Positions 53,942 through 64,000 of a DNA stretch of 64,000 nt are shown here, in pieces. The translations under genes were made by a program, and so were the position numbers. This DNA is from Candidatus Babeliales bacterium (GTDB lineage Bacteria; Babelota; Babeliae; Babelales; JACPOV01), in the NCBI GenBank assembly GCA_050250855.1, contig JBFWNW010000001.1:412266-476265 (forward strand), written 5' to 3'. The notes beneath the pieces were generated by a model. It saw only the letters and a list, made by a program, of their open reading frames with translations, did no database searches and was not told the origin of the DNA. Each line of letters opens with the position of its first letter. Position 1 is the stretch's first letter.

Positions 53942-55024
53942 TTAGAGGTTGATTCTTTGCGCACCCTGTTCAAGAAGCAGGGCCTCAAAAAAGCCTGTTT
54001 TTATAGGGGATGTGAACACCAACTGAGCTGAAAGGTGCCGGAGGTATTTAATGAGAATAGGGATAACTTGTTGGTCAAAGTCACTCATAAAGTCATCAAG
54101 TAAGAATACCGCCTTGCCCTTTTTTTGTTCAACAAGCTTTAAAAGGGCTGCTTTTAATAAAAGAATGGCCAATTTTTGCTGACCTCGAGAAGCATAGGCC
54201 TTTGACCTTTTGCCCTTAAAAACTATAAGAAAATCATCAAGATGAATACCAAAAAGTGACCGCCCCATAGCCCGCTCTTGGGCATGCAGCTCGGGGTTGG
54301 CTTGCTTGAAAGCCTCATAGCTTTCCTCAAGCTTTTTCTTGGGTCTATAAGAGCAGGTAATGGTAATAGATTCATCGAAGAAACCTTCAAGAGCTTCATT
54401 AACCAGTTCTTCTAGCGTTGTAAGAAGTAACACCCTTTTTTCTTGAAGTTCTTTACTCTGTTGCCACAACTTTTCAGTCCAAATATCATAAGACTGCATA
54501 TCGCTAGCAGCTGACTGCAATAAGGCGTTTCGCTGCAAAACAATCTGCTTATGCATTCTCAATGCTGGCAGAATATCTGGTTCATTAAGAATAAGTCCCT
54601 GATCTAAAAATGACCGCCGCGTTTCAGGATTTCCTTTAATGAGCAGTAAATCATCTTCAGTCAACGTTACAATACGATAAAACTGATTAAGCTCTTTGTA
54701 TGAACTAATTGCTTTTTTATCAACTTTTACCAAGCGCTTTGCCCCTGAAAAACCAATTTGGATTTCATGGTCAAAGTCATTGCCCTCATCATGGCACATA
54801 AGTTTTATGAAAAAACTATCTTTTTCAAAGAACAAAAGCTCTTTTGGTGTATGCGTTCTGAATGAGCGCAAATAGCACGCATAATGAAGCGCCTCTAAAA
54901 TTGAGGTTTTTCCAGAGCCATTCGGACCACTAATAAGAATCAATGGCGCATCAAGATCAATCTCTTGATCGGTAAAGCAACGAAAGTTTTTAAGCTGTAA
55001 GGAACGAATCTGCACAGATCTCAA
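53942..55024 (-). CDS. recF: DNA replication/repair protein RecF
   Basis: LKNFR, GPNGSGKT, RSFR, RRSFLD, ASRGQQK, LLDD. Confidence 0.92.
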   Translation of the reverse strand: MRSVQIRSLQLKNFRCFTDQEIDLDAPLILISGPNGSGKTSILEALHYACYLRSFRTHTPKELLFFEKDSFFIKLMCHDEGNDFDHEIQIGFSGAKRLVKVDKKAISSYKELNQFYRIVTLTEDDLLLIKGNPETRRSFLDQGLILNEPDILPALRMHKQIVLQRNALLQSAASDMQSYDIWTEKLWQQSKELQEKRVLLLTTLEELVNEALEGFFDESITITCSYRPKKKLEESYEAFKQANPELHAQERAMGRSLFGIHLDDFLIVFKGKRSKAYASRGQQKLAILLLKAALLKLVEQKKGKAVFLLDDFMSDFDQQVIPILIKYLRHLSAQLVFTSPIKTGFFEALLLEQGAQRINL

Positions 55025-55028
55025 ATAG

Positions 55029-56150
55029 TTAGTTTGTAGTTGGAGAAACTGGCATTACTAAATAGGTAATTTGAAAATCTTCCTTATCTGCCTGGAAAAT
55101 AATTGGCTTTGTTGGATTTTTTAAATAGCACGTAATATCTTTTTCAGAAAATGCTTGCAAGCCATTCAAAAGATACGGTGCATAAAAACGAATCGCCATT
55201 TCTTGCCCTTTAAATTCTTGTAATGGAACTTGCTCATTTAAATTACCAACTTCCTTGTTTTCCATAGAAACATTAAGCATTTCTTTGTCAAAGCTAAATT
55301 TTGTTGCTAAAAATTGCCCTGACAATAAACAGGAAGAACGGCGCAATGTTTTAATAAAGTGAGACCTATCAAGTATTGCAGGAACAAAATCATCTTTTTG
55401 CAAGATTGGTCGGTATTGGGGAAACTGATCAGCCAAAAGCTTGGTAAAGAAATTAAATGACTCACCAGAGAAAACAAGTTGGTTGCCGCAAACACCTAGA
55501 AATATCGTTTGCTGTTCAGAGCTATCTATGATCTTTTTTATTTCAAAAATAGCGCGTCGTGGTAAAAGCCAGCGCTTATCTTCTTCGAGCGTATATTTTT
55601 TGGTTTTAATTTGGGCAAGGCAATGGCCATCTGTAGTTGTCATCGTCAAACCATCAGCATTAAGCTCAAGAAAAAGACCATTAAGTGATGGATTTGCATT
55701 ATTTTGAGGAATTAAAAAAGCAACTTTATCAAGCAGCTGCGCAAAAAAAGATGCTTCAAGATGCATAAGATTTTCAATACGTTCTGGGAAAGGAGGAAAT
55801 GCTTCAGGATTTTTAATATTTAATCCCAAATTCACCGAGCCAGCTTGCAAAAGAAGTTGTTGATTTTCAAGCGTACATTCAATAGCGCCCTCTAACTCTT
55901 TGACTATATCAAATAAACGTTTACCAGGAACTAAGAATGATTCTGTTTGCGCAAAAGAACTATCTTCTATGCTGCATGTTGCTTGTAGACTTATTTCCAA
56001 ATCAGTACTTTTAAGTACTAACTCTTTATGGCCAACGTGAAATAAAATAGATGATGTTGCATCAATTGTTGTGCGCTTTGAACAAATTGGTTGCATCGAT
56101 GAAAGAATTGAAAAAAAAGTTTTTTGATCAACAATAAATCGACCAGCCAT
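55029..56150 (-). CDS. dnaN: DNA polymerase III beta clamp
   Basis: STDLE, TDGH.L, FPQY, YLVMP. Confidence 0.93.
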   Translation of the reverse strand: MAGRFIVDQKTFFSILSSMQPICSKRTTIDATSSILFHVGHKELVLKSTDLEISLQATCSIEDSSFAQTESFLVPGKRLFDIVKELEGAIECTLENQQLLLQAGSVNLGLNIKNPEAFPPFPERIENLMHLEASFFAQLLDKVAFLIPQNNANPSLNGLFLELNADGLTMTTTDGHCLAQIKTKKYTLEEDKRWLLPRRAIFEIKKIIDSSEQQTIFLGVCGNQLVFSGESFNFFTKLLADQFPQYRPILQKDDFVPAILDRSHFIKTLRRSSCLLSGQFLATKFSFDKEMLNVSMENKEVGNLNEQVPLQEFKGQEMAIRFYAPYLLNGLQAFSEKDITCYLKNPTKPIIFQADKEDFQITYLVMPVSPTTN

Positions 56151-56367: not shown

Positions 56368-57036
56368 ATGTTAAAAAAATATATTCTTATTATACTTCTG
56401 CCACTTTGTATGCATGCAAAAAGCATGCCGGTCAAAAATAGTAATGCTACGATACGCAAAATATATACCTGTAAAAACAAAGCGTTTTCTATTGGTGCCG
56501 ATGAAATTGCAACCATTGAAGAAAGTGGCGGTAATTCTACGTATGGAGAAATTACTGACAAAGGCGTTCAAATGCTCATTCATGAACTCAATCCTAAAAA
56601 ATCTGATGTGTTCTATGATCTTGGCTCAGGTGGCGGCCGCATGGTTTTAAAAATGTATCTTGATTCTCCCATACATAGAGCTGTTGGTATTGAGCTTTCT
56701 CCAACACGTCATGCTATAGCTCTTAAAGCGCAGGAAAAACTCAAAGAACTTGGCCAAGAAATCTCTGGTAAAATTCTTGAATTTCGTAATGCAGATATAC
56801 AAAAAGCACGCATACAGGATGCAACTATTATTTATGTAGCATCAACATGCTTTTCTGATGAATTTATGCAAAAGCTTACGACTAAACTTGCTGCGCTCAA
56901 AAAAGGACTTAACGTATTAACGCTGCGCCAATTACCAAAACATGAAGCATTTACACTTGTCAAAGAACTACGCGTTCCTATGACCTGGGGGGCGGATGTT
57001 TCTGTGTATTGGTATACATTAACGAACGGAATTTAA
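56368..57036 (+). CDS. secreted DOT1-like SAM-dependent methyltransferase
   Basis: Signal peptide; TYGEI...DVFYDLGSGGG...AVGIE; CFS. Confidence 0.75.
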   Translation: MLKKYILIILLPLCMHAKSMPVKNSNATIRKIYTCKNKAFSIGADEIATIEESGGNSTYGEITDKGVQMLIHELNPKKSDVFYDLGSGGGRMVLKMYLDSPIHRAVGIELSPTRHAIALKAQEKLKELGQEISGKILEFRNADIQKARIQDATIIYVASTCFSDEFMQKLTTKLAALKKGLNVLTLRQLPKHEAFTLVKELRVPMTWGADVSVYWYTLTNGI

Positions 57037-57102: not shown

Positions 57103-58011
57103 CTACGCCCTTGGGTGTTTTTTATCATACACCTTGCGCAGATGATCCGTTTCTACGTGCGTATAAATCTGCACTGTTGCTATGGTTTCATGCCCCAGCA
57201 AAAGTTGTAGTGAACGCAGGTTAGCACCTTTTTTGAGTAAATGTGTTGCCAGTGAATGGCGCAATTTGTGCGGCGAAATATTTTTAATACCAGCTTTTGC
57301 GCATAATGCTTTGAGTATTAACCAGAATGATTGCCGAGAAATTGGCTTTACTTTTTTGCCATACAAAACAGGAAATAAATAATCAATATGGGCTTTTTTT
57401 CTAATTAATGTTTGATGCGTTTTTTCTACATACTGTTGCAATAAAATATGCATAGGTTCTGGTAAAGGAACTATGCGCTCTTTTCCGCCTTTGCCAAAAA
57501 CGGTAATAAAACCCGTATCGGTGTGCAAGTCAGAGAGCTTCAAGCGCGTCAGCTCAGAAACACGCATGCCAGAACTATACATGAGGCACAACATCACCCG
57601 ATTGCGTATACTTTTTTGTGTATCGCCAACCAAAGCCGCTTTAATAAGGGCTTCAACCTCTGCTTCGCTCAAATACGTTGGCAACCGCCTAGGAATTTTA
57701 GGAAAGGCAATATCAACCGTATAGTTTTCCCACCCCAACTGCTCTCCTGCCCAGGCATAAAAGGTCTTGAGGGCAGATAGCTTGCGCGAGCGGCTCCGTG
57801 CCGTTAAAGAAAGAGAGGCTAAATGCTTAAGGTATTCCTTAATAACCCCCTGATTAATGGTCTGAAAAGTAAGGCCTTTTTGCTCAAGAAACGTAACAAA
57901 TTGCGTAAGATCTGTTTTATAGGCAGCATAGGTGTTAGAGGCAACCCGCTTTTCTGCCAATAAGTAAGCTTCAAATCTTGTTAAAATAGTAGACATACTC
58001 ATACACTGCAT
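57103..58011 (-). CDS. xerD: tyrosine recombinase, XerD/XerC type
   Basis: GMRVSE, GKGGKER, SPHKLRHSLATHLL, LLGH, TVQIYTHV, HPRA end. Confidence 0.85.
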   Translation of the reverse strand: MQCMSMSTILTRFEAYLLAEKRVASNTYAAYKTDLTQFVTFLEQKGLTFQTINQGVIKEYLKHLASLSLTARSRSRKLSALKTFYAWAGEQLGWENYTVDIAFPKIPRRLPTYLSEAEVEALIKAALVGDTQKSIRNRVMLCLMYSSGMRVSELTRLKLSDLHTDTGFITVFGKGGKERIVPLPEPMHILLQQYVEKTHQTLIRKKAHIDYLFPVLYGKKVKPISRQSFWLILKALCAKAGIKNISPHKLRHSLATHLLKKGANLRSLQLLLGHETIATVQIYTHVETDHLRKVYDKKHPRA

Positions 58012-58105
58012 CCTTTTTTATAGGTTAGCTAACCTGAATTATACCAGAAAAATAGACCAAATCCACCTATAAAGAGAATCTTTTACCCTGGGATGTAATT
58101 TCTAT

Positions 58106-58133
58106 TTGACAAATTGAATAAAGACTGTATAAT
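58106..58133 (+). promoter_or_regulatory. sigma70 promoter upstream of the effector array
   Basis: TTGACA-N16-TATAAT. Confidence 0.7.
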
Positions 58134-58170
58134 AGTGTTTAGATATGATTATAATAAAAATGGAGACTTT

Positions 58171-58731
58171 ATGACTTCTACTTCTTTAAAAACAATATTT
58201 ACAATGCTCATCCTTGGTGCTACATCTGTGCATACCATGGAAAATAATAGATTTTTTCCTTTTGTTGTACAAAAAAAGGAAAAGCTAGAAATGCGAGTAT
58301 TGAGCCCTGAAGAGGCTCGAGAGGATGTACAAAGATGGTCAGATTTATCTGAAAAATCTAAACAGCAGATTATTGACGCTTTTAGAGAATCTGGCGATGA
58401 AAATGAAGAGCTATATTATTTTTGCCTCTTGACCTGGGAGAAAATTCTGACGTGGCCTATCTTAAATTACGAAGATAAAATGCTGGTGATTAACCAAATT
58501 GCTATAGGAACAAATTTCAGCAACCAAATTATAATTAACAACAAACTTATTAATGCTGCTGATTATTTTAAAAAGCTCGAAGAAAAATATGCACTCAAAC
58601 TTTTAAATGAAATGAGTGATAATTGGTCGCAGCTAGAAAAAAAAGAGAAAAAAAGAGTGCTCATGTTATCACAACAATATGAAGATAATGATCATTATCA
58701 AGAACGCATAAAAAGACTTAATAGTAAATAA
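58171..58731 (+). CDS. secreted hypothetical protein
   Basis: RBS GGAG; signal ..SVHT-MEN. Confidence 0.6.
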   Translation: MTSTSLKTIFTMLILGATSVHTMENNRFFPFVVQKKEKLEMRVLSPEEAREDVQRWSDLSEKSKQQIIDAFRESGDENEELYYFCLLTWEKILTWPILNYEDKMLVINQIAIGTNFSNQIIINNKLINAADYFKKLEEKYALKLLNEMSDNWSQLEKKEKKRVLMLSQQYEDNDHYQERIKRLNSK

Positions 58732-58735
58732 TTAA

Positions 58736-60175
58736 ATGGAGATTACTATGTTACGTAAACTATTACTTTTCACCTTACTTTTAGGAGCTATAGCTCCTGC
58801 AGCTGCAGCTTCAATCAAACTTGTATCAAACGATGATCAAGAGTTTGAGATAGAAAAAGCTGCTGCTGAACAATCAGAAACTATTAAAAATATGTTAGCC
58901 GATCTAGAAGATCAGCAAGATCAACCAATTAATTTACCTGCCATAGATGGAAAAACATTGGGACTTATTGTAGAGTTTCTGAACAACAACAAAGATTTGA
59001 GTAATCTAAATCTTTCTGATCTTATAAACCTGGTTAATGCTGCAAATGGTCTTGATATACCTAAGCTTCTTGATGCAGCTGCTAGGCTGTTAGCAGAACA
59101 TATTCAAACCAATAAAGCAAAAATTAACATTCAAGAGCTTAAAGAAAAGCTTCCCCTTGATATGCAAAAGCTCGTTGAAGCAAAGATACCCTTTAAGTTA
59201 TTACAAACTCTTACGGGGCATACGGACTCGGTCCTTTCAGTAGCATGGTCACCAGATGGCACCAAGCTTGCATCAGGTTCATGGGACGAAACCATAAAAA
59301 TATGGGATGTAAAAACTGGCACCGAGCTTCAAACTCTTACAGGGCATACACGCTGGGTCTTTTCAGTTGCATGGTCACCAGATGGCACCAAGCTTGCATC
59401 AGGCTCATATGACAAAACCATAAAAATATGGGATGTAAAAACTGGCACAGAGCTCCAAACTCTTACGGGGCATACGGACTCGGTCCTTTCAGTTGCATGG
59501 TCACCAGATGGCACCAAGGTTGCATCAGGTTCAACTGAAAAAACCATAAAAATATGGGATGCACAAACTGGCACCGAGCTTCAAACTCTTACGGGGCATA
59601 CACACTGGGTCCTTTCAGTTGCATGGTCACCAGATTGCACCAAGCTTGCATCAGCTTCATGGGACAAGACAATAAAAATATGGGATGTAAAAACTGGCAC
59701 AGAGCTCCAAACTCTTACGGGGCATACACACTGGGTCGTTTCAGTTGCATGGTCACCAGATGGCACCAAGCTTGCATCAGGTTCAGCTGACAAAACCATA
59801 AAAATATGGGATGTAAAAACTGGCACAGAGCTCCAAACTCTCACGGGGCATACGGACTCGGTCCTTTTAGTTGCATGGTCACCAGATGGCACCAAGCTTG
59901 CATCAGGCTCAGATGACAAGACCATAAAAATATGGGATGTAAAAACTGGCGCCGAACTTCAAACTCTTACAGGCCATACAGACCTGGTCCATTCAGCAGT
60001 ATGGTCACCAGATGGTACAAAACTTGCTTCAGCTTCACATGACAAGACCATACAAATATGGAACCAAGAAAGTATTTTTTCTCACGATGAAAATAGGAAG
60101 CAACTAGCATTGACACCATCAACACAGCTTTCTGCAGCGGCAATTGTCGCCAGCCTGCTATTTTTTAATAAATAA
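58736..60175 (+). CDS. SKP1-like domain / WD40 fusion protein (7 repeats), secreted
   Basis: [27 protein letters not shown]...[15 protein letters not shown] resembles SKP1; WD40 repeats [24 protein letters not shown]; likely true start 58748. Confidence 0.9.
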   Translation: MEITMLRKLLLFTLLLGAIAPAAAASIKLVSNDDQEFEIEKAAAEQSETIKNMLADLEDQQDQPINLPAIDGKTLGLIVEFLNNNKDLSNLNLSDLINLVNAANGLDIPKLLDAAARLLAEHIQTNKAKINIQELKEKLPLDMQKLVEAKIPFKLLQTLTGHTDSVLSVAWSPDGTKLASGSWDETIKIWDVKTGTELQTLTGHTRWVFSVAWSPDGTKLASGSYDKTIKIWDVKTGTELQTLTGHTDSVLSVAWSPDGTKVASGSTEKTIKIWDAQTGTELQTLTGHTHWVLSVAWSPDCTKLASASWDKTIKIWDVKTGTELQTLTGHTHWVVSVAWSPDGTKLASGSADKTIKIWDVKTGTELQTLTGHTDSVLLVAWSPDGTKLASGSDDKTIKIWDVKTGAELQTLTGHTDLVHSAVWSPDGTKLASASHDKTIQIWNQESIFSHDENRKQLALTPSTQLSAAAIVASLLFFNK

Positions 60176-61546
60176 ATGGAGATTACTATGTTACGTAAAC
60201 TATTACTTTTCACCTTACTTTTAGGAGCTATAGCTCCTGCCGCTGCCGCTTCAATCAAACTTGTATCAAACGATGATCAAGAGTTTGAGATAGAAAAAGC
60301 TGCTGCTGAACAATCAGAAACTATTAAAAATATGTTAGCCGATCTAGAAGATCAGCAAGATCAGCCAATTAATTTACCTGCCATCGATGGAAAAACATTG
60401 GACCTGGTTGTAAAATTTCTGAAAAACACCAACAAAGGTTTGAGCAATCTAAATCTTTCTGATCTTATAAACCTGGTTAATGCTGCAAATGGTCTTGATA
60501 TACCTAAGCTCCTTGATGCAGCAACTACACTGTTGGCAAATTATATTCACAACAACAAAGCCAACATTCCAGAGGAAAATCTTCCCGTTGATATGCAAAA
60601 GCTCATTGAAGCAAAGATGCCATTTAATAATGAACCATTTAAAAATCTTACGGGGCATACAGGCGAGAAGGTCAGATCAGTTGCATGGTCGCCAAATGGC
60701 ACCAAGGTTGCATCAGGTTCAGATGATAAAACCATAAAAATATGGAATGCACAAACTGGCACAATAATCCAAACTCTTACGGGGCATAAAGACTCGGTCC
60801 GGTCAGTAGCATGGTCACCAGATGGCACCAAGGTTGCATCAGGTTCAGATGATAAAACCATAAAAATATGGAATGCACAAACTGGCACAATAATCCAAAC
60901 TCTTACGAGGCATACACACTGGGTCAATTCAGTAGCATGGTCACCAGATGGCACCAAGCTTGCATCAGGTTCAGAGGACAACACCATAAAAATATGGAAT
61001 GCACAAACTGGCACAATAATCCAAACTCTTACGGAGCATACACACTGGGTCAATTCAGTAGCATGGTCACCAGATGGCACCAAGCTTGCATCAGGTTCAG
61101 AGGACAACACCATAAAAATATGGGATGTAAAAACTGGCACCGAGCTTCAAACTCTTACGGGGTATACTGACTCGGTCCTTTCAGTAGCATGGTCACCAGA
61201 TGGCACCAAGCTTGCATCAGGCTCATATGACAAAACCATAAAAATATGGGATGCACAAACTGGCACAGAGCTTCAAACTCTTACAAGCCATACAAACGCG
61301 ATCTGGTCAGTAGCATGGTCACCAGATGGCACCAAGCTTGCATCAGGCTCAGCTGACAACACCATAGAAATATGGAAACGAGAAAGTATTTTTTCTCACG
61401 ATGAAAACAATGAAAAATCAGAAAACACAGAACCCAGTGGGCAATTGGTAACAGCAGAACCAACTGATTGGTTGTTTTACACAGGGGCATTAGCAGGATT
61501 AGCTGGACTAGGTTTTGTTGCTTACAAACTATTTTTTAATAAATAA
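60176..61546 (+). CDS. SKP1-like / WD40 fusion protein (6 repeats) with C-terminal transmembrane tail
   Basis: Same architecture; tail WLFYTGALAGLAGLGFVAYKLFFNK. Confidence 0.9.
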   Translation: MEITMLRKLLLFTLLLGAIAPAAAASIKLVSNDDQEFEIEKAAAEQSETIKNMLADLEDQQDQPINLPAIDGKTLDLVVKFLKNTNKGLSNLNLSDLINLVNAANGLDIPKLLDAATTLLANYIHNNKANIPEENLPVDMQKLIEAKMPFNNEPFKNLTGHTGEKVRSVAWSPNGTKVASGSDDKTIKIWNAQTGTIIQTLTGHKDSVRSVAWSPDGTKVASGSDDKTIKIWNAQTGTIIQTLTRHTHWVNSVAWSPDGTKLASGSEDNTIKIWNAQTGTIIQTLTEHTHWVNSVAWSPDGTKLASGSEDNTIKIWDVKTGTELQTLTGYTDSVLSVAWSPDGTKLASGSYDKTIKIWDAQTGTELQTLTSHTNAIWSVAWSPDGTKLASGSADNTIEIWKRESIFSHDENNEKSENTEPSGQLVTAEPTDWLFYTGALAGLAGLGFVAYKLFFNK

Positions 61547-62983
61547 ATGGAGATTACTATGATACGTAAACTATTACTTTTCACCTTACTTTTAGGAGCT
61601 ATAGCTCCTGCCGCTGCCGCTTCAATCAAACTTGTATCAAACGATGATCAAGAGTTTGAGATAGAAAAAGCTGCTGCTGAACAATCAGAAACTATTAAAA
61701 ATATGTTAGCCGATCTAGAAGATCAGCAAGATCAGCCAATTAATTTACCTGCCATCGATGGAAAAACATTAGGACTTGTTGTAAAATTTCTGAACAACAA
61801 CAAAGATTTGAGTAATCTAAATCTTTCTGATCTTATAAACCTGGTTAATGCTGCAAATGGTCTTGATATACCTAAGCTTCTTGATGCAGCTGCTAGGCTG
61901 TTAGCAGAACATATTCAAACCAATAAAGCAAAAATTAACATTCAAGAGCTTAAAGAAAAACTTCCCTTTGATATGCAAAGGCTCGTTGAAGCAAAAATGC
62001 TACTATTTAAAACTCTTACGGGACATACAGAAAATGTCCATTCAATAGCATGGTCACCAGATGGCACCAAGCTTGCATCAGGTTCATGGGAGCTAAAAAT
62101 ATGGAATGCACAAACTGGCACCGAGCTTCAAACTCTTACAGGGCATAGAAGCCGCATCTGGTCAGTAGCATGGTCACCAGATGGCACCAAGCTTGCATCA
62201 GGTTCACAGGACAAAACCATAAAAATATGGGATGCGCAAACTGGCACAGAGCTCCAAACTCTTACGGGGCATACAGACTCGGTCCGGTCAGTAGCATGGT
62301 CACCAGATGGCACTAAGCTTGCATCAGGTTCATTAGACAACACCTACACCATAAAAATATGGGATGCAAAAACTGGCACCGAGCTTCAAACTCTTACGGG
62401 GCATACAAACTGGGTCCGTTCAGTAGCGTGGTCACCAGATGGCACCAAGCTTGCATCAGGCTCAGATGACAAGACAATAAAAATATGGGATGCGCAAACT
62501 GGCACCGAGCTTCAAACTCTTACGGGGCATACAGGCGAGAAGGTCATTTCAGTTGCATGGTCACCTGATGGCACCAAGCTTGCATCAGGTTTATCGGACA
62601 AGACAATAAAAATATGGGATGTAAAAACTGGCACCGAGCTCCAAACTCTTACGGGGCATACACGCTGTGTCCTTTCAGTAGCATGGTCACCAGATGGCAC
62701 CAAGCTTGCATCAGGTTCACAGGACAAAACCATAAAAATATGGGATGTAAAAACTGGCGCCGAACTTCAAACTCTTACAGGCCATACAGACCTGGTCCAT
62801 TCAGTAGTATGGTCACCAGATGGCACCAAGCTTGCATCAGGTTCATGGGACGAAACCATAAAAATATGGAAAAGAGAAAGTATTTTTTCTCACGATAAAA
62901 ATAGGAAGCAACTAGCATTGACACCATCAACACAGCTTTCTGCAGCGGCAATTGTCGCCAGCCTGCTATTTTTTAATAAATAA
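61547..62983 (+). CDS. SKP1-like / WD40 fusion protein (7 repeats)
   Basis: Same architecture as the 58736 gene. Confidence 0.9.
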   Translation: MEITMIRKLLLFTLLLGAIAPAAAASIKLVSNDDQEFEIEKAAAEQSETIKNMLADLEDQQDQPINLPAIDGKTLGLVVKFLNNNKDLSNLNLSDLINLVNAANGLDIPKLLDAAARLLAEHIQTNKAKINIQELKEKLPFDMQRLVEAKMLLFKTLTGHTENVHSIAWSPDGTKLASGSWELKIWNAQTGTELQTLTGHRSRIWSVAWSPDGTKLASGSQDKTIKIWDAQTGTELQTLTGHTDSVRSVAWSPDGTKLASGSLDNTYTIKIWDAKTGTELQTLTGHTNWVRSVAWSPDGTKLASGSDDKTIKIWDAQTGTELQTLTGHTGEKVISVAWSPDGTKLASGLSDKTIKIWDVKTGTELQTLTGHTRCVLSVAWSPDGTKLASGSQDKTIKIWDVKTGAELQTLTGHTDLVHSVVWSPDGTKLASGSWDETIKIWKRESIFSHDKNRKQLALTPSTQLSAAAIVASLLFFNK

Positions 62984-64000
62984 ATGGAGATTACTATGGT
63001 ACGCAAACTATTTTTGTTAACACTTATTTTAGGAGCAATAGCTCCTGCCGCTGCAGCTTCAATCAAACTTGTATCAAACGATGATCAAGAGTTTGAGATA
63101 GAAAAAGCTGCTGCTGAACAATCAGAAACTATTAAAAATATGTTAGCCGATCTAGAAGATCAGCAAGATCAACCAATTAATTTACCTGCCATTGATGGAA
63201 AAACATTGGGACTTATTGTAGAGTTTCTACAGAAAAAGGATATTGAGGTTAAAAAATTAGATCTTGAAGCACTTATTAATCTAGTCAATGCTGCAAATGG
63301 TCTTGATATACCTAAGCTCCTTGATGCTGCGGCTACCGTTTTAGCAGAACATATTCAAACCAATAAAGCAAAAATTAACATTCAAGAGCTTAAAGAAAAG
63401 CTTCCCCTTGATATGCAAAAGCTCGTTGAAGCAAAAATGCCATTTAAGTTATTACAAACTCTTACGGGGCATACAGACTCGGTCTTTTCAGTAGCGTGGT
63501 CACCTGATGGCACCAAGCTTGCATCAGGTTCATGGGACAAGACAATAAAAATATGGAATGCACAAACTGGCACCGAGCTCCAAACTCTTACGGGGCATAC
63601 AGGCTTTGTCCATTCAGTAGCATGGTCACCAGATGGCACCAAGCTTGCATCAGGCTCATATGACAAAACCATAAAAATATGGGATGCACAAACTGGCACA
63701 GAACTCCAAACTCTTACGGGGCATACAACCTACATCCAGTCAGTAGCATGGTCACCAGATGGCACCAAGCTTGCATCAGGCTCATATGACAAAACCATAA
63801 AAATATGGGATGCACAAACTGGCACAGAACTCCAAACTCTTACAGGGCATACAGACTGGGTCATTTCAGTAGCATGGTCACCAGATGGCACTAAGCTCGC
63901 ATCAGCTGCAGATGACAACACCATAAAAATATGGGATGCACAAACTGGCACAGAGCTCCAAACTCTTACAGGGCATTCAAACTCTGTTCATTCAGTAGTA
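62984..64000 (+). CDS. SKP1-like / WD40 fusion protein, 3'-truncated by the window edge
   Basis: ATGGAGATTACTATGGTACGCAAAC start, SKP1-like domain, at least four full WD40 repeats; open to the end of the window. Confidence 0.88.

Follow-up and report, generated by a model that had tools for sequence, protein, structure and literature searches.

Signal-Peptide-Bearing Skp1-WD40 Fusion Proteins Encoded in Tandem by a Babeliales Bacterium: Candidate Receptors for Host Cullin-RING Ubiquitin Ligases

Introduction

Why would a bacterium carry a row of genes that each join a domain of the eukaryotic ubiquitin ligase adaptor SKP1 to a WD40 propeller and place both behind a signal peptide? The question is raised by positions 58736-64000 of a 64-kb window (the whole stretch of DNA analyzed here), which is the terminal part of contig C1 (JBFWNW010000001.1) in the genome of a Candidatus Babeliales bacterium (1.22 Mb, 11 contigs, 95% complete). 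We propose that the proteins of this array are exported, host-directed single-chain substrate receptors for cullin-RING ubiquitin ligases, a reading in which we place about as much trust as doubt, and which is weighed below against alternatives as the relevant evidence appears.

An Array of Four Head-to-Tail Genes

The array consists of four head-to-tail open reading frames (ORFs) on the + strand (58736-64000), separated by zero intergenic bases in the ORF list of the window. The preliminary description of this DNA had claimed at least four such genes, each TAA abutting the next start, and all four junctions, when read directly, agree: ATGGAGATTACTATG stands directly after every TAA. Gene 1 (58736-60175, + strand) encodes 479 amino acids (aa), or 475 from a second ATG at 58748, and comprises a signal peptide, a Skp1-like domain, a linker helix, seven WD40 blades, and a C-terminal tail. 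Gene 2 (60176-61546, + strand; 456 aa) has the same design, but its WD40 repeats number six and its longer tail, WLFYTGALAGLAGLGFVAYKLFFNK, resembles a membrane helix. Gene 3 (61547-62983, + strand; 478 aa) also shares this design, with seven repeats, and over its first 465 bases, from signal peptide to linker, its DNA is 96.5% identical to that of gene 1 in a MAFFT alignment. Only the first 339 codons of gene 4 (62984-64000, + strand), with four WD40 stretches, lie in the window, at whose end the frame is still open.

All four ORFs open with MEITM[LIV], followed by a shared N-terminal sequence. In gene 1, a putative ribosome-binding GGAG (58738-58741, + strand) is separated by a 6-base spacer from the second ATG (58748-58750), and the same 15 bases are found at the start of genes 2-4. 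Because GGAG lies six bases 5' of the second ATG, translation probably starts there (MLRK...), with the first 12 bases of ATGGAGATTACTATG serving as a ribosome-binding spacer.

The end of C1 (63874-64000) and the start of contig C3 (C3:1-127) share 127 identical bases, which lie inside an exactly repeated WD40 blade, and the start of C3 carries the remaining blades of gene 4 and the terminus ...KLFFNK. As C3 overlaps the end of C1 and completes gene 4, the array most likely comprises exactly four genes; the break in the assembly falls within the repeat, and how many blades gene 4 has is uncertain. On C3 the remainder of gene 4 is followed by an ORF that, by eye, resembles a prolyl-tRNA synthetase gene. 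Two further paralogs occur in tandem on contig C2, with N-terminal modules ~61% identical to those of the array and AGGAG sites of their own. In the region 58001-64000, the G+C content is 0.38-0.43 (~0.36 in the contig as a whole), and the AT skew, at 0.14-0.19, is strongly positive, a reflection of repeat composition.

The location of the array at a contig end, within perfect repeats, would fit the alternative that it is debris or an assembly artefact, in which a piece of Skp1, acquired not long ago from a eukaryote or virus, became linked accidentally to a repeat gene and was then amplified and drifted without function. We give this alternative almost no credence. The frames are intact in all six copies (456-489 codons), and it is the assembly alone that cuts a seventh piece; the distribution of the family, described below, bears on it further.

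An N-Terminal Skp1-Type BTB/POZ Domain

Residues 26-137 of gene 1 (58811-59146, + strand) form a Skp1-type BTB/POZ domain that comprises SKP1 strands S1-S3 and the helices through H7 and matches the Pfam family Skp1_POZ (PF03931, E=8.5e-18). Each of the six paralogs matches this family over residues 26-86 (E 5.8e-18 to 1.5e-16). A search against PDB sequences produced 34 matches, one to Elongin C (7.8e-5) and the other 33, with a best E of 1.7e-9, to SKP1 of animals, plants, Dictyostelium, and yeast; the alignments extend through AAN.LDI..LLD to residue ~124.

An AlphaFold2 (AF2) model of residues 24-152 has a mean confidence (pLDDT) of 92.6, and when it was submitted to Foldseek, all 50 among the matches listed were SKP1-containing entries. 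Alignment to SKP1 with VIA-align gave Z scores of 12.5-13.9 and root-mean-square deviations (rmsd) of 1.5-3.2 Å over 95-113 residues, with model residues 2 to 111-114 aligning with SKP1 residues 2 to 141-142. According to the model, SKP1 is kept through H7 and H8 alone is missing, and the alignments show that relatives retain a TPEE-like H7 sequence. A Skp1-type N-terminal module, as the preliminary description proposed, is thus recovered at three levels: Pfam (E ~1e-17), PDB sequences (33 of 34 matches to SKP1), and predicted fold (Z 12.5-13.9). That description had named the lack of a Skp1/BTB fold at residues ~25-125 as the result that would speak against it; such a fold is predicted there, with a SKP1 match of Z up to 13.9.

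The C-terminal Skp1 family PF01466 had no match at E<=1 in any of the six paralogs, so that, of the profiles named in the preliminary description, Skp1_POZ and WD40 were matched and this one was not. Matches to Pfam BTB are weak in the window genes (15.8-21.1 bits, with the cut-off of 20.5 exceeded in one of four), and no BACK domain occurs among the Pfam matches listed. The only leads from a protein atlas, clusters of Skp1 (viral and eukaryotic) and of Elongin C, stayed below threshold (0.86-0.88).

The Linker Helix

Between the Skp1-like domain and the propeller lies a linker of 13 residues (59147-59185, + strand) whose helix (residues 141-149) stands where SKP1 H8 would and leads directly into the propeller. 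Its LPx[DE] start recurs among relatives (KLPLDILKL, ALPREIRNPI, QLPKEIANPI, and GLPKELRKLV) and has a suggestive resemblance, in sequence, to the Leu-Pro start of the F-box. The Pfam profiles for F-box, F-box-like, PRANC, and the Skp1 C-terminal domain matched none of eight linker segments and none of nine C-terminal segments at E<=10, and the N-terminal 155 aa likewise matched none of these profiles at E<=1. Across the whole genome, the F-box families PF12937 and PF00646 have zero matches. We rejected the reading of the linker as an F-box, given that no profile matches even at E<=10 and that only the short LPx[DE] resemblance is left; an F-box-like role of this helix in cis is kept as a hypothesis suggested by its sequence. 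The preliminary description had the F-box-binding helices of SKP1 replaced in cis, which holds in part: H8 is replaced by the LPxDM helix, but H5-H7 are kept and no F-box profile matches.

A Repetitive WD40 Propeller

The propeller of gene 1 (59180-60073, + strand; residues ~149-446) has seven blades, with Pfam WD40 matches in seven stretches. Genes 1-4 have 7, 6, 7, and 4 such stretches, respectively, and counting WSPDG cores gives identical blade numbers; for the three complete genes this coincides with the 6-7 repeats initially reported. A full-length AF2 model of gene 1, built from an alignment of 114 sequences (pLDDT 91.9, pTM 0.83), places a signal helix, a beta-alpha domain, seven blades, and a low-confidence tail in this order. 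Its helices span residues 72-84, 93-105, 109-125, 132-138, and 141-149, and the propeller begins right after the last of these, without a flexible spacer. Fold searches with the whole model were dominated by WD40 chains and are uninformative on the linker.

When compared with solved seven-blade WD40 structures, the propeller gave VIA-align Z scores of 46-52, with 50-52 for 7big, 2ymu, and 5yzv. The closest propellers are the prokaryotic, highly repetitive 2ymu and 5yzv together with designed consensus propellers, at 52-57% identity. Like the propeller of gene 1, 2ymu and 5yzv (52-56% identity, Z ~50-51) consist of seven blades of near-identical 42-residue units; unlike it, they are isolated propellers from other contexts, with no Skp1 domain among the matches listed.

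The 42-residue blade unit is near-constant across the 27 blades of the array, and per-position entropy places the variation at ~4-7 positions: two that follow GH, a single first-strand position, the residue that precedes the Asp of GSxD, and positions after WD. We take these to be the usual top-face ligand contacts of WD40 propellers. Variation confined to few blade positions on a constant scaffold also argues against drifting debris. The array family accounts for 42 of the 52 WD40 matches in the genome.

Signal Peptides and C-Terminal Tails

A Sec-type signal peptide was recognized by eye at 58748-58810 (+ strand), where MLRK is followed by a hydrophobic core, LLLFTLLLGAIA, and then by PAAAA, with S as the next residue. 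The maximum Kyte-Doolittle hydropathy over 10 residues is 2.7, and in the AF2 model of gene 1 a low-confidence helix (residues 2-16) precedes the Skp1-like domain. Judged by eye and by Kyte-Doolittle hydropathy, the N-termini are signal-peptide-like, as first described.

The C-terminal tail of gene 1 (60074-60172, + strand; ...QLALTPSTQLSAAAIVASLLFFNK) is hydrophobic or amphipathic and has a pLDDT of ~47-51. The tail of the array proteins occurs in two forms, LSAAAIVASLLFFNK in genes 1 and 3 and the longer WLFYTGALAGL...YKLFFNK in gene 2 and the C3 piece. The hydrophobic tail of the preliminary description is therefore a feature of the array but not of the C2 paralogs, both of which lack it. 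No Pfam or NCBIfam model matches the tail, and as the NCBIfam results at E<=1 include no PEP-CTERM, GlyGly-CTERM, or similar family, we rejected its interpretation as a sorting signal. A MitoNEET_N match on the gene 2 tail (E=0.011, below cut-off) was taken as mere composition.

The segment LTPSTQLSAAAIVASLL in the tails of genes 1 and 3 resembles, by eye, a post-propeller helix of relatives, for example LNLASAQIVAYV and MSLEQATQIWKYV. A helix-like motif follows the propeller in many relatives (L016, L013, L023, L022, and L015 among the loci of other genomes; P0058, P0085, and P0109 among the metagenomic proteins) and reads, for example, L(S/T)xxQAxxIWxY(L/V)QG..K.GW.GI..IL or F..LPxx(M/I)(Q/K)..L.PYI, the latter being a second LP motif at the terminus. 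Pfam gave no match to this motif, which may fold back on the Skp1 part.

A signal peptide together with hydrophobic residues ahead of K..K at the C-terminus fits a type I topology in the membrane, and the proteins could accordingly have an envelope role, as periplasmic or surface scaffolds, adhesins, or host-surface binders that are tail-anchored in genes 2 and 4 and use the Skp1 domain for oligomerization or packing. Periplasmic beta-propellers are common in bacteria, weak TolB-type NCBIfam matches occur below cut-off, and the propeller is nearest to prokaryotic WD40 domains, all of which would suit such a role. We nonetheless consider it improbable. The mean Kyte-Doolittle value of the tail over 19 residues is borderline (~1.45), and a tail is missing from the C2 paralogs and most relatives, with a comparably hydrophobic end in just 2 of 34 Skp1_POZ ORFs from other genomes. 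Skp1_POZ occurs in none of 14 control genomes, and in the articles consulted BTB and Skp1 domains are reported from eukaryotes, their viruses, and protist-associated chlamydiae. Moreover, this is a phylum of obligate protist parasites in which proteins with signal peptides are the proposed effectors.

Distribution in Dependentiae, Metagenomes, and Viruses

A word-based homologue search returned just gene 4 of the window, and an exhaustive profile-free search with residues 1-150 was used instead, which yielded 456 proteins at E<=1e-3. Pfam divides 32 long metagenomic matches into four with WD40 or another propeller, nine with leucine-rich repeats (LRRs), one with Lcl_C, and seven with POZ only; the remainder are nine proteins of repeated full Skp1 units with PF01466 and two unrelated, low-complexity sequences. 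The long matches open with signal-peptide-like segments; metagenomic matches carry no taxon. One metagenomic protein (P0003) has repeated POZ units and no other domain.

Skp1_POZ was found in 34 of 261 Dependentiae genomes (24 of the 189 of good quality) and in 24 of 145 genera. Among 29 Dependentiae ORFs, its partner is WD40 in 14, LRR in four, ankyrin in two, and an M48 peptidase in one, leaving seven with POZ alone and one with nothing, although several of these eight partnerless ORFs are cut by locus ends. A hydrophobic N-terminus, defined crudely as a hydrophobic stretch of 10 residues no more than 35 residues from an ATG, is present in 32 of 34 Skp1_POZ ORFs of other Dependentiae; the remaining two are similar, although the ORF as delimited contains no ATG. 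The family is thus modular, and its partner diversity (WD40, LRR, ankyrin, and others) is typical of adaptor families. The ORF with the peptidase (L037:334-1695, - strand, genome G184) has a signal-like N-terminus, Skp1_POZ, and Peptidase_M48 (E=8e-9), that is, an enzyme rather than a repeat domain as partner.

Tandem arrays also occur in other genomes: G121 has eight plus three genes, G120 five, G107 four, and G189 two, the last being POZ-LRR genes. In the G107 array (L048; G107:C1:972500-984500), the four tandem genes have 722-892 codons, each with two to three consecutive Skp1_POZ domains, and Pfam verified WD40 in L019, the single gene scanned. Some members of the G121 array are short (322-338 aa), and a genome of the same genus as ours (G103) has two diverged matches, compared with six here; short members and such a strong difference in copy number between close relatives are what debris could produce. 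Numerous families of the phylum, however, have conserved the domain order, the signal peptide, and the LPx[DE] linker.

A quick tree was built from 61 domains (141 columns, with support from the SH-like approximate likelihood-ratio test, SH-aLRT, only). A branch supported at 98 separates 53 of its 55 Dependentiae rows from the six canonical Skp1-like rows; the other two are long branches. This placement likewise argues against recent debris, and the tree fits an old, maintained family. Paralogs group by genome (SH-aLRT 98 for the four window genes, 98 for the C2 pair, 95 for the five of G120, and 98 for the eight of G121), revealing lineage-specific tandem expansion. Judged by these sequences, such genome-wise clustering is a birth-and-death pattern, as described for chlamydial F-box and BTB families.

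The survey of Babelota genomes and giant viruses called for in the preliminary description thus located the domain in Dependentiae, as given above, and in viral copies that are not fused. An alignment-based contig scan recovered two Babeliales loci and two giant-virus loci, and the giant-virus Skp1-like ORFs are not joined to a receptor. One, on a contig from a giant-virus metagenome-assembled genome (MAG) (L045 2989-3477), is a plain 162-aa SKP1 with H7-H8 whose N-terminal half is, by eye, strikingly similar to the bacterial fusions (DQVTLQSQDGQDFKVEVKVA...). The other, also on a giant-virus MAG contig (L044 898-2473), is a shorter Skp1-like ORF right after an ORF that opens with an F-box-looking LPxxVLIEIF.

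Proposed Function

No cullin (PF00888) was found in any of the 261 Dependentiae genomes, and the control was likewise without a match. With no cullin match in these genomes and no F-box match in the genome of this bacterium, the Skp1 domain has no partner in the bacterium itself. Under the proposal that the array proteins are cullin-RING substrate receptors, we infer delivery to the host cytosol, cullin binding, and ubiquitylation of a host target, in the following steps. The proteins would be exported by Sec and then released via a type II secretion system or vesicles. A cullin of the host, most probably CUL1, would be the docking site for the BTB/POZ domain derived from Skp1, and the rigidly joined WD40 propeller would hold a host protein within reach of the RBX1-bound E2, so that one chain would replace SKP1 and the F-box protein. 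Because the tandem copies differ mainly at the blade positions that we assume to form the ligand face, the array could be a small receptor library with differing targets.

The genome encodes two secretins and two ATPases of the type II secretion system (T2SS) type. In Babela, no secretion system other than the T2SS is reported, and gspD is reported to be present twice in all TM6 genomes studied (PMC4378268, PMC4776705). In Chromulinavorax, 44% of coding sequences have a putative signal peptide, including many putative effectors such as ankyrin-repeat proteins, and outer membrane vesicles were seen early in infection (PMC6561590).

Several points weigh against the cullin-receptor proposal. The PxPN motif of Skp1 strand B3 is said to contact Cul1 (PMC1257465), and at its position all four window genes have NLPA instead, with PLPN in both C2 paralogs; PxPN is itself a loose marker, retained by 9 of the 36 domains from Dependentiae and by only 22 of the 48 Skp1 matches that look canonical. 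Likewise, AANYLDI of Skp1 is AANGLDI in the four window genes. The Sec signal peptide evidences export to the periplasm only and does not cover passage of the outer membrane or of any host vacuole, and in genes 2 and 4 the tail, which resembles a membrane helix, could retain the protein in the inner membrane. The likeness of the propeller to prokaryotic WD40 domains is uninformative on a host target. Finally, the retention of H5-H7 in the model leaves F-box binding or self-association possible. A contact between SKP1 Asn108/Tyr109 and CUL1 was not borne out, as Asn108 of SKP1 is placed near the F-box side (PMC11648922), and we infer nothing about cullins from the Y-to-G change.

Some of these observations would be explained if the proteins are exported to the host and yet are not cullin adaptors, making some other Skp1-type contact that leads to blocking or relocation rather than ubiquitylation. 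Variants include a decoy that sequesters F-box proteins via the H5-H7 groove; partners of the RAVE, CBF3, or Sgt1 type; and self-association combined with target binding by the propeller. Consistent with this, H5-H7 of SKP1 are retained, PxPN is changed to NLPA in the window genes and often degenerate in the family, Skp1 acts in several complexes other than SCF (SKP1-cullin-F-box) ligases (PMC11648922), and a truncated Dictyostelium Skp1 homodimer is among the joint-top structural matches with several SKP1 chains (Z 13.9). However, H8 is absent and PF01466 undetected, whereas H7 and H8 jointly are said to form the surface critical for binding the F-box (PMC1257465). The variety of repeat domains fused to the Skp1-like domain is a pattern of substrate-receptor families rather than of decoys, and the spacer-free propeller would sit roughly at the position of the receptor domain of an F-box protein. 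We regard a non-cullin role as unlikely, though a real contender.

Returning to cullin-RING receptors, we tentatively extend the proposal to the phylum, in a form that is possible but rather doubtful: a Sec-exported family in which an H7-truncated Skp1 serves as a portable handle on interchangeable modules and would plug into host CUL1-RBX1 without SKP1 or an F-box protein, with the LPx[DE] helix filling the F-box groove in cis and the arrays acting as fast-evolving degrader libraries.

Neighboring Genes

Just upstream of the array, an ORF at 58114-58731 (+ strand; 205 aa, or fewer from an inner start) has a hydrophobic N-terminal segment and ends 4 bases before gene 1. Because of this short distance, it may be co-transcribed with the array. 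This ORF and the one that precedes the C2 pair are mutually unrelated, and library scans gave neither a family. Another ORF, 1.7 kb upstream of the array (56368-57036, + strand; 222 aa), opens with a hydrophobic, signal-like segment, MLKKYILIILLPLCMHA, and carries a histone methyltransferase domain of the DOT1 family (PF08123, E=3e-18); from its sequence it is a candidate exported effector of host chromatin. On the - strand lie a recF-like gene (53942-55024) and a dnaN-like gene (55029-56150), both recognized by eye, as well as a XerC/D-type tyrosine recombinase (57103-58011; Pfam Phage_integrase, 7.8e-47).

Relationship to Known Systems

Eukaryotic SKP1, the adaptor of SCF or cullin-RING ligase 1 (CRL1) (PF03931 plus PF01466), shares with the array proteins the BTB/POZ core and the helices through H7, with the motifs S.TIKNML and AAN.LDI..LLD in common. 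Unlike SKP1, the array proteins have a signal peptide, a short acidic insertion loop, NLPA, and a covalently joined propeller, and lack H8/PF01466. SKP1 binds a separate F-box protein, whereas the array proteins have the substrate-binding propeller fused to them. In this respect they are closer to the CUL3 adaptors (BTB-BACK-Kelch and MATH-BTB), which likewise combine a BTB fold and a propeller or other repeat domain in one chain and form large, fast-evolving, lineage-specific families (PMC1257465). They differ from these in having a BTB domain that, given the weak Pfam BTB matches, appears to be of the Skp1 type rather than the long-form dimeric type, no BACK domain among the Pfam matches listed, and WD40 rather than Kelch repeats, and in being bacterial and exported.

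Parallels also exist among intracellular agents of protists and algae. The Parachlamydiaceae NEX/PEX families, in which BTB-box or F-box domains are fused to LRRs or tetratricopeptide repeats (TPRs), are repeat-fused ligase-adaptor domains that occur in tandem arrays, evolve by birth and death, and are proposed effectors (PMC4209131); UWE25 has 43 BTB-LRR proteins (PMC1257465). By analogy, the logic of the array would be the same as in the BTB-Kelch adaptors and the parachlamydial BTB-LRR families. The parachlamydial families use BTB-box or F-box domains and type III signals, whereas here we find Skp1 itself, a Sec signal peptide, and mainly WD40 partners, in Dependentiae. The chlorovirus PBCV-1 protein A039L is a parasite-supplied Skp1 for an SCF-like ligase, with ankyrin partners that have a C-terminal Skp1-interaction motif (PMC7019647); the viral Skp1 is a separate cytoplasmic protein that binds separate receptors, whereas adaptor and receptor are one chain in the array. 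Legionella AnkB is a case of host SCF hijacking by a bacterium of amoebae and is anchored in the vacuole membrane through a C-terminal lipid signal (PMC7542358), to which the hydrophobic tail of the array is a possible parallel. Bacterial F-box effectors supply the F-box and need host SKP1, whereas the array supplies Skp1 and has no detectable F-box.

The statement in the preliminary description that known mimics supply only the F-box is contradicted by the chlorovirus Skp1 (PMC7019647) and the BTB-box families of Parachlamydiaceae (PMC4209131, PMC1257465). Bacterial mimicry of cullin-RING substrate receptors is thus already known in kind, and the Skp1-receptor fusion is a new variation on it. 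We found no description of Skp1 fusions in bacteria in the literature covered, which did not extend to subscription journals. In the Dependentiae genome papers Skp1 appears only within one reference title, and Skp1, POZ, and PF03931 are absent from the supplements of PMC4378268 (nine files) and PMC4776705 (two of three files).

Known routes for hijacking these ligases employ F-box, U-box, or BTB-box proteins or, in giant viruses, a separate Skp1. If our proposal is correct, the Skp1-receptor fusion would be a third route, one that dispenses with the SKP1 and F-box layer of the host and so escapes host control over receptor loading, and it would provide a compact natural template for engineered protein degraders. 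Should cullin binding fail, there would still be a widespread family of exported bacterial proteins that make use of a eukaryotic domain without an evident explanation. For the poorly known Dependentiae parasites of protists, the array and its relatives constitute a concrete, testable set of effectors, and the phylum may join the chlamydiae as the second bacterial phylum with an expanded family of BTB-fold adaptors.

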